From an uncultured Puniceicoccaceae bacterium (lineage in GTDB: Bacteria; Verrucomicrobiota; Verrucomicrobiia; Opitutales; Oceanipulchritudinaceae): a DNA stretch of 64,000 nucleotides. Where the stretch lies: assembly GCA_963933835.1 (NCBI GenBank), contig CAWVVV010000002.1:417849-481848 (forward strand), given 5' to 3'. Each line of letters begins with the position of its first letter. Within the stretch, counting starts at the first letter, position 1. The position numbers are program-made. Below are positions 20,701-23,700 of the stretch, piece after piece.

Positions 20701-23700
20701 CGTCGCGAAGGCTGAAGACAAGAGCCCTGAGCCAAAGAGTGAATTCCAAATGGTGTAGTAGGAAATGGAGACACAAGTAATTAACCACGAAGTTCACGAA
20801 GAGCACGAAGGCTATACTTTCGAGCCTCTCTCGAAACGTATCATTTCCGCAGCGATCGAGGTTCATCGCGAGTTAGGTCCAGGTCTTCTTGAATCCGCAT
20901 ACATGGCGTGTTTCGCGCATGAATTGTCTTTAATGGACATTGAGGCTGAGTTAGGGGTCCCTCTGCCTGTTCAATACAAAGGCTTGGCGGTCCCGACTAG
21001 CTATCGAATGGATTTGGTAATTGATAATGAAATTTTAGTGGAGTTAAAGAGCGTTGCTTCACTCGAGCCTATTCACGAAGCACAGGTTTTAACTTACCTT
21101 AAGCTCTCTGGTTTGAAAAAGGCTCTGCTGATTAACTTTAATGTTCCATTGTTAAAAGACGGCATCCGCCGATTTGTCCGATGAAACGATTCAATTCTAG
21201 TTTTTTCTTCGTTAACTTCGTGATCTTCGTGTTAGAAAACCACGTTATATTCGAGGACATTATTTAATGAGTAACTCGATCGAAGATTTGATTAGGATTA
21301 ACCTGAACGGTAAGGACGTTGAAGTTCCTAACCGAATGAATCTCGTCGATGCGGCTGAGATGCATGGCGTCGAAATTCCGCACTATTGCTACCACTCTAA
21401 GCTCAGTGTGGCGGGTAATTGCCGCATGTGTCTGATTGAGATGGGCACGCCGGGTCGTGACCGTGCGACAGGTGAGGCAATGCTCAATGAGGATGGCTCG
21501 CCGAAGATCATGTGGGTGCCAAAGCCGGTTATCGCCTGTGCGACGAATGTATCGCCGGGGATGCATGTGAACACGGAGTCCGAAACGGTGAAGGGATGCC
21601 GCGAGGGCGTAATGGAATTTCTCCTCGTAAACCACCCGCTGGATTGCCCGATTTGTGACCAGGCAGGGGAGTGCCGCCTGCAGGAATTTTCAACCGACTA
21701 TGGCCGTGGCTACTCACGCTTCATCGAAGAGAAGAACGTAAAGCCCAAGCGCACTCGTATCGGCCCGCGCGTCATGTTGGATGATGAGCGCTGTATTTTG
21801 TGCTCCCGTTGCGTTCGCTTTGCAGACGAAATCATTGAAGATCATGTCCTCGGCTTTATCGACCGTGGCAGCTACTCGACGCTGACGACCTTCCCAGGTA
21901 AAGAGCTCAATAGTAATTACTCTCTAAATACTGTGGACATCTGCCCGGTGGGTGCGCTCACGAGCACTGACTTCCGCTTTAAAATGCGAGTTTGGTTCCT
22001 CCGGGAAACGCCTTCGATTGATGCCGAGTCGAGTGTTGGTTGCAACACCATGGTCGGCAGCCGCGAGGGTAAGATTTACCGAATCACTCCGCAACAGAAC
22101 GACGAAGTAAACGACACTTGGATGCCTGACTCAGGTCGCGAGCTCTATAAGAAGGTAGAGTCTAAGGATCGTCTCGATAGCTACGCGATCGAAGGTCGTC
22201 CAGTATCGGCAGATGAGGCTCTGGCAAAAGCAGCCGAACTCTTGCAAGGTGGTAAGGTCGCGATCGTCGGCAGCGCTACGCTTGCGCTCGAAGAACAATT
22301 TGTCCTCACCAAAATTCGTGAGACACTCGGTGCTGAGATCCCGTCGTATTGGGTTTCTCATTACGCAGATGGTGATGGGAAGCTCTTAAGTGCAGACCGC
22401 ACGCCGAACCTTCGCGGCGGTCTCTTGAGCGGGTTTACCGATGCACTTCCGGTAGCAGAGCTCAGCGAGCTCGGAGCGAAAATCGATTCCGGCGAAATCA
22501 CGACGATCTTGTCTGTCGGTGAAAAAATTTGTGCTGCAGGCATCAGTGATGAACAGCTGAAAAAGGCGAAGGTCATTTACATTGGTGAAGAGCTTTGCTC
22601 GACGAGTCAGTTCGCAGAGGTCGAGATCCCACTTCTCACCGTGTTTGAAAAATCAGGCACCTTCGTTAATCAACAGTTTCGAGTGCAAAAGTTCACTCAG
22701 GCGATTCCAGGGCCATCGAGTGTGATCTTTGGACTCTCTAATTTTACCAAGTTGCACCACCTCCTCGACGCCGATTCGCCGTATGCGCCAAGTCCGGCCG
22801 CGATCTGGCAACACATGGCACAGGCGGTGCCCGAATTTGCCGACCTGACCTTCAACGGAATCCCGGCGACGGGCGTTGTTGTTTCCGATCATCGATTCGC
22901 GGCGCTTGAATTCGTTGATGGCCCGTCGATTCACTTTCAGCCCAAAAACGCTGCCGTTGAGGCCTAAGGGAAACGTATGATACCATTCGAGATACCTTTT
23001 GAGAACACCGTCCTCGTCGTTGTAAAGGGGGCCGTGATGATCGCAGTGGTCATGGGGATGGCTGCCTACGCTGTTTTGGTCGAACGCAAGGTAGCGGCCT
23101 GGATTCAAGGTCGCCCGGGCCCAAATCGCACAAGCTTGCCTTTGATCGGTGGCATTCCGGTGATCGGACCCTTCCTTACGCGTCTCGGGGTTTTTCAGCC
23201 AGCGGCAGATGGCCTTAAGTTTCTCTTCAAAGAAGATGCGCTGCCGGGCCACGTAAATAAATTCTACTACGTCCTCGCTCCGCTCATTTCGTTCATCCCA
23301 GCGATGACGACGATGACGGTGCTACCGTTCGGAGTTTGGATCAGTGCTGAAGGTGTCGCGTCACCGCTTGTCCTTGCTAACCTCGATATCGGGATCCTCT
23401 TCATTCTAGCGGTTTCATCGCTCGGTGTTTACGGCATCATCCTTGCGGGTTGGTCAGCGAATTCGAAATACCCGTTTCTTGGCGGCATCCGTGCGAGTGC
23501 GCAGATGATCAGTTACGAGCTTGCGATGGGACTTTCGCTCCTGCCCGTCTTCATGTGGTATGCTGGCTCAGGTGCGACAATGAATATAGCGCATATCGTT
23601 GATGCGCAGAGCGGTAGATTACTGATTTTTCCTGCTTACACGATTTTCATCCAACCACTCTCGGCATTGATTTTCCTCGTCGCGCTCTTCGCAGAGACGA

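Follow-up and report, generated by a model that had tools for sequence, protein, structure and literature searches.

A small nuclease gene lies between nuoF and nuoG in the genome of an uncultured Puniceicoccaceae bacterium, enclosed by two arms made of the same short words in opposite orientation. How did such a gene come to sit inside a conserved operon, and what are its arms for? These questions were addressed on the window, i.e. the whole stretch of DNA analysed (64,000 nt, to which all coordinates given without a contig name refer), and then on the rest of the genome and on other bacteria. The element looks like one member of a class of insertable DNA cassettes that is very widespread, seems not to have been described before, and is related in its design to the intervening sequences (IVS) of rRNA genes.

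A nuclease cassette in the nuoF/nuoG spacer

The upstream host gene, nuoF, codes for the 51-kDa subunit of NADH dehydrogenase (19367..20758; ORF list and Pfam Complex1_51K, NADH_4Fe-4S and SLBB_2), and the downstream one, nuoG, for the 75-kDa subunit (21267..22967; Pfam Fer4_Nqo3, NADH-G_4Fe-4S_3 and Fer2_4); all features described here are on the + strand. The whole cassette is held in the 508-nt spacer between them (20759..21266), which contains a single ORF (20765..21184). The initial annotation had placed an inverted-repeat-bracketed PDDEXK_3 gene in this spacer, as the ORF list, the profile matches and the arm search all confirm. The ATG of the cassette follows the TAG stop codon of nuoF (20756-20758) by only 6 nt, so that its translation is probably coupled to that of nuoF. 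At the left end, an outer tip TTAAC (20781..20785) corresponds to the consensus TTCAC found immediately 5' of the outermost word in 139 arms of other loci. It is followed by the left arm (20786..20810), with three inward-pointing CACGAAG words at 9-nt spacing. This arm is within the ORF and is translated as HEVHEEHE, the sole start codon of the cassette being upstream of it. The right arm (21207..21231) consists of three CTTCGTK words, the complement of those on the left. The two 25-nt arms are 396 nt apart and complementary at 21 of 25 positions (84%), with one mismatch in a word (CTTCGTT) and three in the inter-word spacers. The stretch from the right arm to the nuoG start (21232..21266) contains AACCACG, which from its sequence may be the remnant of another arm's outer end. 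The GC content is 0.36-0.44 at the cassette versus about 0.54 in its surroundings.

The cargo is a 139-aa protein that passes the curated cut-offs of both PF13366 PDDEXK_3 (E 2.6e-39, 134.7 bits for a cut-off of 22) and TIGR04256 GxxExxY (E 1.4e-40, 138.3 bits for a cut-off of 35). The motif that gives the family its name is present (G40, E43, Y46), as is the D...ExK nuclease triad (D83, E93, K95). Comparison of 18 sequences revealed seven invariant residues (G40, E43, D83, K95, Q107, N124 and F125), while Y46 and E93 are nearly so (at least 90% conserved). Disorder is predicted for residues 1-17, including those encoded by the arm; the predicted structure is otherwise confident (pLDDT 89.9) and has the PD-(D/E)XK fold. 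A fold search with this model gave Cas4 SSO0001 as the best match (Z 7.9) and Hjc at Z 6.4, but Hjc, restriction enzymes and lambda exonuclease all fall within about 1.5 Z, so that the search does not single out a subfamily. Among solved structures, sequence searches returned only non-significant matches, to lmo1582 (E 0.042) and T7 endonuclease I (E 0.4).

In 20 of 25 relatives the nuoF/nuoG spacer measures only 2-59 nt, which supports the view that the nuo element is an inserted cassette and that gene and arms form one insertable unit. The cassette appears fixed within the species, as had been stated, since contigs of two DNA runs, X5 (20614-22200) and X7 (19800-21447), bridge it with 0 differences; no contig of these two runs skips it, and the empty allele was thus not seen in them. 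A congener has a copy at the same site, in which all six words read CACAGAG rather than CACGAAG; the tip and one spacer are the same in both copies. Independent insertions in the two congeners, envisaged because their proteins stood apart in a quick tree, were withdrawn when a constrained tree proved better by 37 log-likelihood units; sisterhood of the two nuo-site proteins is not rejected (p-AU 0.78). A target-site duplication was undetected at 64 loci: with cassette ends as defined in this study, the longest junction-proximal direct repeat has a mean length of 2.58 nt, against 2.36 nt in mismatched control pairs. A search for a promoter-like site of the cassette found none, and at loci elsewhere 41 cassettes are co-directional with their surroundings versus 9 that are not (p 5.6e-6), which supports the view that the cassette sits promoterless and co-directional inside operons.

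Words or helix: the arms across loci

Seven PF13366 and two PF05635 genes were found by profile matches in the genome. Each of the nine has its own flanking inverted repeat, with a score of 11-26; the null, drawn from 3000 random placements that keep the geometry, is 7.16 +/- 1.14, and 15 of these placements score 12 or more. Each gene is also oriented like both its neighbours. The claims that every cassette gene is bracketed by arms and placed co-directionally in an operon are thus upheld for the whole set. The neighbour names given earlier are also borne out by Pfam (leuS/lpxI, leuB/alaS, oppD/oppF, the position after fabV, and a saccharopine-type dehydrogenase next to a decarboxylase); the insertion sites bear no functional relation to one another. 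Low GC applies to eight of the nine cassettes but, as judged by eye, not to the congener's same-site copy.

What does not stand is the proposal of one class with the same arms throughout, which is too strong because each cargo family has arms of its own. The four-helix-bundle cassettes carry words of their own, ATGATGAAT and ATCCTAATC, unrelated to the CAC words. The gene hemL, which had been listed as cargo, is flanked by a small hairpin and by a solo ATGATGAAT-type arm, with reversed polarity. Likewise, a 3.4-kb islet described as an arm-bracketed unit lies in fact between two repeat nests, the nearest arrays of which face outward.

The same architecture is found far beyond this genome. Of 108 PDDEXK_3 loci, drawn from at least 12 phyla, 88 have an own-arm inverted repeat with a score of at least 12, compared with 53 of 324 cross-locus pairs. 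As the protein alignment offered no conserved stretch of 7-10 columns, the single cargo protein of the nuo cassette served as the query, and the 80 loci obtained with it are biased to its own clade. The layout is the same at 24 of 29 four-helix-bundle loci. The words and the spacers between them differ sharply in their conservation. Between the two arms of a locus, mismatches affect 6.0% of the word-core positions (87/1449) and 31% of the spacer positions (85/274), and inside a single arm the identity from one core to the next is 90%, versus 36% from one spacer to the next. Positions 1, 3, 6 and 7 of the core word are nearly invariant, position 4 being free. In the protein tree, the deepest split (support 99) sets all 8 elements with ...AT words apart from all 73 with ...AG words, a single change on the tree. 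Word class thus tracks protein clade, a match that represents one tree event and would also be expected from plain co-inheritance.

One explanation of the arms is that they pair in the operon transcript and are cut by RNase III as in the 23S IVS, which would release the cassette RNA and make the insertion tolerable. The strong co-orientation with host transcription fits this scheme, and in RNA fold predictions the entire cassette is closed off by the paired arms, in the minimum-energy structure as well as in the centroid (z -1.89, 5 of 100 shuffles being as good). There is also a precedent of the same layout in the Coxiella burnetii 23S IVS, a 428-nt sequence with an S23p/four-helix-bundle ORF in an inverted-repeat stem containing three tandem heptamers (GACAGAT), which is cut by RNase III in mid-stem according to the published report (PMC4990558). 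The authors of that report add that the cut would remove the Shine-Dalgarno sequence of the IVS ORF. In the nuo cassette, where translation can start only 5' of the left arm, a stem cut would behead the ORF. A start codon before or inside the left arm also occurs in at least four other copies in the genome.

The pattern of substitutions argues further against such an RNA function. If pairing in the transcript were selected, G.U pairs would be expected in excess on the sense strand, but the arm mismatches comprise 67 G.T versus 76 A.C at 73 PDDEXK_3 loci (p 0.50), and 31 versus 49 at 24 four-helix-bundle loci. Mismatches are moreover five times commoner in spacers than in words, and the same words recur from phylum to phylum, something that pairing alone would not require. 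On these sequence comparisons, conservation appears word-wise and not helix-wise, and an RNA stem as the selected feature is not supported; as an account of the cassettes, it is judged quite unlikely. The initial annotation had read them as selfish operon counterparts of the ORF-bearing 23S IVS. The insertable unit (20 of 25 spacers being empty), the co-orientation and the IVS-like design remain from that reading, and the selected stem finds no support. Some RNA effect, though not necessarily a selected one, is nonetheless likely, because the arms pair in the predicted fold and RNase III cuts the stem in Coxiella (PMC4990558). The only RNA data bearing on the locus, contigs of one run (X17), gave pieces on nuoF only, some of them from relatives. 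Three joints skipping 132-1085 nt were set aside as conserved nuo motifs of other organisms, in view of their short sides (24-33 nt) and low likeness.

Copies without a gene and possible movers

The distribution of the cassettes is patchy. PF13366 is present in 20 of 37 genomes of the bacterial family, in 0-8 copies, with 8 in one congener and 0 in another. At the level of the phylum, GxxExxY and four-helix-bundle "23S IVS" proteins occur in 107 of 151 sampled genomes. GxxExxY proteins are 49-64% identical across phyla, as much as between congeners (62%), which points to horizontal spread.

These data bear on a second explanation, in which the nuclease or the four-helix-bundle protein serves the host in defence, repair or mRNA turnover, the word arrays being operator or autoregulatory sites and the spread resulting from selection for that job. 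The conserved catalytic residues and the fixation of copies in the sampled population speak in its favour, and the congener's same-site copy, if orthologous, may indicate a long-lived element. Such a service is difficult to reconcile with a number of copies that varies from none to eight among close relatives, with functionally unrelated insertion sites, with the many gene-less and degenerate copies, or with the horizontal spread suggested by the identities across phyla. Nor did the searches point to a defence function or to carriage by phages: none of the 5027 models of PADLOC-DB 2.0 matched the nuclease or the two four-helix-bundle proteins at E <= 0.01, no PHROG phage family matched the cargo protein, and a close-relative search of 32 candidate stretches of viral contigs yielded 0 relatives. 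A host-serving module is therefore regarded as very doubtful.

Many arrays come without any gene. The genome contains 34 arrays of at least three words versus 2 in a block shuffle, and gene-less hairpins and nests were located at C1:88526-88849, C3:15152-15545, C3:18578-18925 and C4:169912-177256. The nests have segments of 40-210 nt in common, at 75-97% identity. Hairpins nested within hairpins are observed, as well as solo arms, one of which (C1:51865) matches an arm of the C1:551291 cassette over 29 nt, spacers included. Word arrays are also carried by 10 of the 17 genomes of the family in which a PDDEXK_3 gene was not found, five of these having 10-28 of them. Two such array-rich genomes, G015 and G024, have a completeness of 94-96%. 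Gene-less hairpins in G015, G024 and G052 are homogeneous and were evidently copied; in G015 the array copies share one derived defect and must thus stem from one master.

Such copies are what would be expected if the hairpin chassis were a miniature repeat that is mobile or copies itself, with some enzyme of the host or acting in trans, or else replication template-switching at palindromes, as its mover, and with the PDDEXK_3 and four-helix-bundle genes as mere passengers in its loop. The arrays in genomes where the nuclease gene was not found, the copied hairpins, the nests and solo arms, and the occurrence of a non-enzymatic four-helix bundle in the same layout all agree with this. A candidate mover was not found. 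Y1 transposases (RAYT/IS200-type) were considered and rejected for this genome, PF01797 giving 0 matches in the array-rich G000 (97% complete), G001, G014, G015 and G024. The arms also differ with cargo family and protein clade, which a common outside mover does not predict unless co-inheritance suffices, and catalytic residues kept across phyla imply that the cargo does something. Passive carriage is thus a possibility to be taken seriously, albeit a rather unlikely one.

The reading preferred here, tentatively, is that the arms are DNA recognition arrays of a selfish, horizontally spread cassette, read by a sequence-specific protein, most likely its own nuclease. The cassette would then consist of a small promoterless gene, here for a minimal PD-(D/E)XK nuclease of the GxxExxY family, between two inverted end-arrays. 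Each of these would comprise a TTCAC-type tip and then 7-nt words, about three in number, with the consensus CAC-R-G/A-A-G and a spacing of 8-10 nt. The nuclease would bind the words, pair and cut the ends or the gene-less hairpin copies, and so cause the unit to be copied or moved. Landing in operon spacers would be harmless to the host, and expression would be ensured by read-through from the host promoter. Base-pairing between the arms would simply result from the presence of the same words at both ends, in opposite orientation, with copying at the DNA level keeping them alike. Two observations count against a spread driven by the nuclease: word arrays are abundant where a PDDEXK_3 gene was not found, and the four-helix-bundle family, which is not an enzyme, shares the layout, suggesting that the chassis propagates without a cargo nuclease. 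To our knowledge, moreover, a nuclease alone cannot integrate DNA. A broader version of the preferred reading would make GxxExxY proteins the movers of pan-bacterial palindromic word-array elements, in which the word-reading nuclease cuts and host repair copies the element in, by a kind of homing into hairpins, the ORF-bearing 23S IVS being the rRNA-borne branch. This generalization appears unlikely at present.

A description of the PDDEXK_3 form of such cassettes was not found in the literature searched. Few uncharacterised small proteins of bacteria are commoner than those of the GxxExxY and four-helix-bundle "23S IVS" families. If the arrays are recognition sites of the enclosed nuclease, they would represent a new and very compact kind of mobile DNA, with a programmable-looking recognition code of 7-nt words that change class with the protein clade. 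A 120-aa protein and a 25-nt site would offer a direct experimental handle, being well suited to gel-shift or cleavage assays. Should GxxExxY proteins be the movers themselves, a new mechanism of DNA mobility on a restriction-enzyme-like fold would be at hand, and the origin of rRNA intervening sequences, which together with their mobility has been a question since the 1990s, would be explained. There are practical consequences for annotation as well: translated repeat arms would account for many odd N-termini (HEEHE, NTDEHG) and for many of the small ORFs listed as "hypothetical", and insertions within conserved operons such as nuo can be flagged.

Comparison with known systems

Inverted-repeat transposons and MITEs share with the cassettes terminal inverted repeats with a defined tip. 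The other hallmarks of this group were not found, as no target-site duplication was detected and the sole ORF of the nuo cassette codes for a 139-aa PD-(D/E)XK protein, instead of a DDE or HUH transposase or a serine or tyrosine recombinase.

In integron cassettes, small ORFs that lack a promoter of their own run in the direction of one outside, and the imperfect palindromic attC sites keep their layout while the sequence varies. The present cassettes resemble them in both respects, most strongly through the four-helix-bundle arms as regards the palindromic sites. Unlike them, this element class has neither an integrase nor an attI platform; the palindrome halves flank the ORF, whereas those of attC lie together at its 3' end, and the cassettes are single and scattered in operons instead of arrayed.

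The free-standing homing endonuclease genes of T4-like phages, which belong to the GIY-YIG or HNH families and for which cleavage of the empty allele has been demonstrated, are likewise lodged between conserved genes. Here too, a small nuclease gene is found co-directional between conserved essential genes, is patchy in close relatives and spreads horizontally. The differences lie in the inverted arms and the gene-less copies, neither of which we know of in the phage genes, and in the PD-(D/E)XK cargo.

Avd, the accessory protein of diversity-generating retroelements, is a PF05635-like four-helix bundle that works with a reverse transcriptase and template/variable repeats (PMC10053308). Two of the cassettes of this genome carry cargo of this shared family, but they contain neither a reverse transcriptase nor template/variable repeats.

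Another parallel is offered by the REP/REPIN sequences and their RAYT (Y1 HUH) transposases (Bertels and Rainey, 2011; PMC3116915). Both systems have short extragenic palindromic hairpin repeats, with many gene-less copies and few gene-bearing ones, both have a gene flanked by inverted repeats, and in both the repeat type is paired with the protein by group. The cassettes depart from that system by the PD-(D/E)XK fold instead of HUH/Y1, by three phased 7-nt words instead of one REP palindrome, and by arrays that are present even in genomes for which the gene was not detected.

The closest comparison is with the 23S IVS of Coxiella (PMC4990558). Whereas that sequence is inserted in a helix of the rRNA, the nuo cassette lies between protein-coding genes; it carries a PD-(D/E)XK nuclease (PF13366) and not a PF05635 protein, and its words, which have a period of 8-10, are separated by spacers and kept from phylum to phylum. 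Processing by RNase III was demonstrated in Coxiella; for the cassettes, the wobble test lends no support to selection on RNA pairing. The shared features are a length of about 430-510 nt, a single small ORF read in the same direction as the host transcript and inverted arms with about three tandem heptamers. Both also have a sporadic distribution and have been called selfish, and PF05635, the family of the IVS ORF, is itself the cargo of two of the nine cassettes of this genome.

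Anatomy of the nuoF-nuoG cassette and its counterparts in the genome

The genes nuoF (19367-20758) and nuoG (21267-22967) are separated by a spacer of 508 nt (20759-21266), whose single ORF (20765-21184, 139 aa) codes for a PDDEXK_3 protein (PF13366, E 2.6e-39; TIGR04256 GxxExxY, E 1.4e-40). This gene is enclosed by an inverted repeat with two 25-nt arms 396 nt apart, the left one (20786-20810) made of three CACGAAG words and the right one (21207-21231) of three words read as CTTCGTG, both with a 9-nt spacing; all these features are annotated on the plus strand. The arms are 84% complementary, with one of their four mismatches in a word and three in the 2-nt inter-word spacers. 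The left arm is translated within the ORF frame as HEVHEEHE, the sole in-frame start (ATG 20765) lying 21 nt before it and 6 nt past the nuoF stop. Because of this short gap, and since no sigma-70-like promoter is predicted in 20300-21700, read-through expression with translational coupling would be the simplest reading for this cassette. Its GC content is 0.36-0.44, compared with about 0.54 around it. Just beyond the right arm, AACCACG (21238-21246) resembles the outer end (tip and word start) of another left arm, and may be the remnant of an older element.

An alignment of 18 sequences shows no variation at G40, E43, D83, K95, Q107, N124 and F125, and at least 90% conservation at Y46, E93 and Y111; these residues correspond to the GxxExxY motif and a D...ExK triad. 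The AlphaFold model (pLDDT 89.9) is confident except for residues 1-17, the arm-encoded peptide. A fold search with this model retrieved the common PD-(D/E)XK core, with Cas4 SSO0001 (Z 7.9) as best match, Hjc at 6.4, and restriction enzymes and lambda exonuclease close behind Cas4. These near-equal matches do not allow assignment to a PD-(D/E)XK subfamily. A PDB sequence search returned non-significant matches only, PADLOC and PHROG gave none, and no close relative was found on viral contigs.

The genome (G000; 1.94 Mb, 10 contigs, 97% complete) holds seven PF13366 matches and two matches to PF05635, the four-helix-bundle "23S rRNA IVS protein" family. The initial annotation described the intact ones among these nine small genes as flanked by inverted repeats, and this is borne out for all nine by the best ungapped inverted repeat between their 5' and 3' flanks: the scores are 16, 14, 16, 26, 19, 16, 14, 25 and 11, versus 7.16 +/- 1.14 for random placements of the same geometry, only 15 of 3000 of which reach 12 or more. 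The arms of all nine consist of short tandem units, with an arm sequence individual to each. Their co-directional placement was confirmed as well, all nine genes running in the direction of both neighbours, and Pfam agrees with the neighbours named earlier (leuS-lpxI, leuB-alaS, oppD-oppF, after fabV, saccharopine-type dehydrogenase-decarboxylase), further ones being a MiaB-like gene, an aldehyde dehydrogenase and a purM-like gene. The low GC content ascribed to the whole set applies to eight of the nine (4-13 points under their flanks) but not to the remaining one. As for hemL, which had been listed as bracketed by the same arms, its flanking arms are of the type found with four-helix-bundle genes but with reversed polarity, the upstream one being a small hairpin and the downstream one a solo arm, and it is not cargo. 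An HNH endonuclease gene (HNH_5, HNH, HNH_4; L176:2245-2892, corresponding to G000:C3:198244-198891, minus strand) directly follows the C3:199035-199331 PDDEXK_3 cassette, after a purM-like gene.

Arms: paired helix or arrays of words

A scan of one genome per species, biased to the clade of the window protein by its single protein query, yielded 80 loci coding for relatives at 49-64% identity. They come from Verrucomicrobiota, Planctomycetota, Acidobacteriota, Chloroflexota, Cyanobacteria, Gammaproteobacteria, Gemmatimonadota, Hydrogenedentota, Bacteroidota, Fibrobacterota, Desulfobacterota, Myxococcota and one Methanotrichaceae archaeon. Pooled with 28 loci of the family (30 minus two of the window's own genome) and the seven G000 copies, they make up 115 domain-bearing loci, 108 of them with full flanks. 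The own-arm score is at least 12 in 88 of the 108, as against 53 of 324 pairings of left and right flanks from different loci, a high cross-locus level, which in itself shows that the arms have words in common. Among the 50 loci where a heuristic ORF caller (ORFs of at least 120 aa, frame with the best RNY score, 115 loci) found both neighbours in the same direction, the cassette gene follows them in 41 and opposes them in 9 (p 5.6e-6).

The arms were analysed in 73 loci with a score of at least 14 and the usual polarity, eight loci of reversed polarity and one ambiguous locus being set aside. Selection for RNA pairing in the sense transcript would be expected to leave many more G.U than A.C among the mismatches. 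No such excess was found (67 G.U and 76 A.C, binomial p 0.50), the other positions comprising 2103 Watson-Crick pairs and 119 other mismatches. Between arms, mismatches affect 6.0% of the 7-nt core positions (87/1449) versus 31% of the spacers (85/274). Core positions 1, 3, 6 and 7 are almost invariant (1.4-3.9% mismatch), position 4 being free (18%). Within one arm, neighbouring cores are 90% identical and neighbouring spacers 36%. Three words per arm are found in 52 of the 73 loci, with a word step of 8, 9 or 10 nt in 118 of 136 cases. The outermost word is preceded by a TTCAC consensus (T 0.64, T 0.69, C 0.50, A 0.80, C 0.78), with no conservation outside this tip. Taken together, the wobble test, the core/spacer contrasts between and within arms and the TTCAC tip are the signature of sequence-specific recognition-site arrays with a defined tip, and not of a helix kept for pairing.

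The arms had been proposed earlier to act as an RNA stem. They do pair in both the minimum-energy and centroid structures predicted for the window element (z -1.89), and on this model such a stem will form, but nothing indicates that selection keeps it, and the RNA-stem reading is an improbable explanation. Our tentative preference, at less than even odds, is for a selfish cassette of DNA, with arms that serve as arrays of recognition words for the nuclease it encodes.

The relationship between words and proteins bears on this preferred reading. A tree built from 112 domain sequences has its deepest split (SH-aLRT 99) between 15 proteins and the other 97. Words end in AT (CGCAGAT, CACGGAT, CACGAAT, CACTGAT) in all eight labelled elements of the 15-protein side, and in AG in all 73 of the 97-protein side, so that the word class changes once on the protein tree; GGAG and AGAG swap freely within the AG side, which fits the free position 4. 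This match is a single event, which co-inheritance would produce too; either way, gene and arms travel together.

Both cargo families had been credited with the same arms. Of 151 genomes covered in the phylum, 107 have the four-helix-bundle family, one with as many as 23 matches; the family was sampled at 30 loci from the 151, 29 with full flanks including G000's two. Own arms scoring at least 12 are present at 24 of the 29 loci versus 2 of 116 cross-locus pairs. These arms likewise consist of tandem units, here of 6-8 nt; they are rich in purines on the sense strand, bear no relation to each other between loci, and again show no wobble excess on that strand (G.T 31 versus A.C 49, p 0.057). 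The two cargo families thus have their layout in common, but not their arms.

Insertion, gene-less arrays and mobility

The cassette is an insertion in the nuoF-nuoG spacer. Both genes were found on one stretch at 26 loci, the window's included, and the spacer measures 2-59 nt in 20 of the 25 relatives. The congener G001 has a 473-nt spacer with a PDDEXK_3 cassette at the same place, G025 (L017) a 138-nt one occupied by a gene-less hairpin with arms composed of AT-rich 9-nt units (GATAAATTATAAATGCTAA / TTAGCATTTATCGCTTATC), and G004 a 171-nt stretch. Unrelated to the cassette are a 589-nt insertion with two overlapping small ORFs (115 and 77 aa) in G033 (L015:~850-1480; another family of the same order) and a 718-nt one in G016 (L020:~660-1380), coding for a ~240-aa protein that is pirin-like by eye. 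The junction thus tolerates various inserts. The ORF pair of G033 looks of toxin-antitoxin type, and no repeat arms were noticed there.

The G001 cassette protein is 62% identical to the window protein, its best match among the seven G000 paralogues, the NuoF and NuoG ends being 82-83% identical. The aligned cassettes have in common the tip AATTnACCAC and the second spacer AG, and all six arm words read CACAGAG in G001 and CACGAAG in the window. The two proteins lie apart in a quick tree; a constrained tree with the two as sisters gained 37 log-likelihood units over it (p-AU 0.78). Orthology is thus neither rejected nor shown. If the copies are orthologous, the six words changed in concert, which would need DNA-level homogenising or a specificity switch; if not, the site received two separate insertions or one cassette took the place of another.

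The reported fixation of the element in the species holds in the population sampled: contigs of two other DNA runs span it with no difference, and no empty allele was seen. So does its patchy distribution, PF13366 occurring in 20 of 37 family genomes at 0-8 copies (8 and 0 in the two congeners). A module serving the host, the least probable of the explanations considered, has to be set beside both this fixation and this patchiness.

In G000, 34 arrays of at least three C[AG]C.[AG]A[GTA] words at 8-10-nt spacing were counted, versus 2 in a block-shuffled copy. Word arrays also occur without a gene. A strict three-word pattern, whose reversed control gave 4 matches in all 37 family genomes, detected arrays in 19 of the 20 genomes with a PF13366 gene and in 10 of the 17 where none was found. 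Five of the latter (completeness 68-96%) hold 10-28 arrays: G014 18, G020 10, G015 10, G024 19 and G052 28. In the genus of G015, G024 and G052, the short gene-less hairpins are of one homogeneous type, and their common derived, bulged middle word indicates copying from one master. In these hairpins (L184-L212), the right-arm middle word is ATCCCTG or ATCCTGT, not ATCTGCG, and would bulge; short outer palindromic flanks are repeated too. In G000, hairpins are nested within hairpins (C1:88526-88849, C3:15152-15545, C3:18578-18925, C4:169912-177256), and segments of 40-210 nt recur between its repeat regions at 75-97% identity. A solo three-word array (C1:51865-51889), with no partner arm within 250 nt, matches an arm of the C1:551243-551679 PDDEXK_3 cassette over 29 nt, spacers included, 500 kb away, which suggests recent copying of the arm alone. 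The strongest rival has a hairpin chassis moved by something else, with the genes as passengers; arrays in genomes where the gene was not found are consistent with it, and we consider it rather unlikely, though next in probability to the nuclease-read cassette that we prefer.

The evidence on the mover cuts against a simple answer, and no target-site duplication was detectable. Y1 (RAYT/IS200) transposases are not the mover, with no match in G000, G001, G014, G015 or G024. G008, G051, G022 and G005 have 48-87 Y1_Tnp matches each, many spanning the first 60 profile positions only, in ORFs of ~340 aa, which points to a large expansion of a Y1-related element unrelated to these cassettes. At G008:C58:13118-16095, at least eight tandem gene-less hairpins with CACAAAGGCACAAAGCTCACAAAG arms lie about 180-200 nt apart, and a PDDEXK_3 gene (15476-15826) sits between two of them, not within one. 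Five exact tandem 9-nt units (CGCAAAGCT, minus strand) were seen at G000:C1:494084-494128, with no inverted partner noted.

Relationship to known systems

The element class is very widespread and apparently unpublished: searches by family name, accessions and word strings, in the main text of open-access literature, brought up no account of GxxExxY genes with repeat arms around them. PDDEXK_3 is entered in a survey of PD-(D/E)XK proteins as a family with several transfers and no known function (PMC3424549), and PF05635 proteins have a relative in Avd of diversity-generating retroelements (PMC10053308).

The cassette is akin to both IVS-like and REP-like palindromic elements. The nearest described system is the ORF-bearing 23S rRNA intervening sequence. 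According to the Coxiella burnetii account (PMC4990558), this is a 428-nt element in helix 45, with an S23p (four-helix-bundle) ORF in its loop and, shortly before the ORF, three tandem GACAGAT heptamers whose number varies from strain to strain; RNase III cuts mid-stem of the inverted repeats, which removes the Shine-Dalgarno sequence. The layout is the same as that of the cassette, and the analogy drawn initially thus stands for the anatomy, but the cassette is without two of the features that define an IVS, the rRNA site and the cargo family. REPIN/RAYT systems (PMC3116915) likewise combine gene-less hairpins with a repeat-flanked gene; the enzyme differs, and no RAYT is present in G000.
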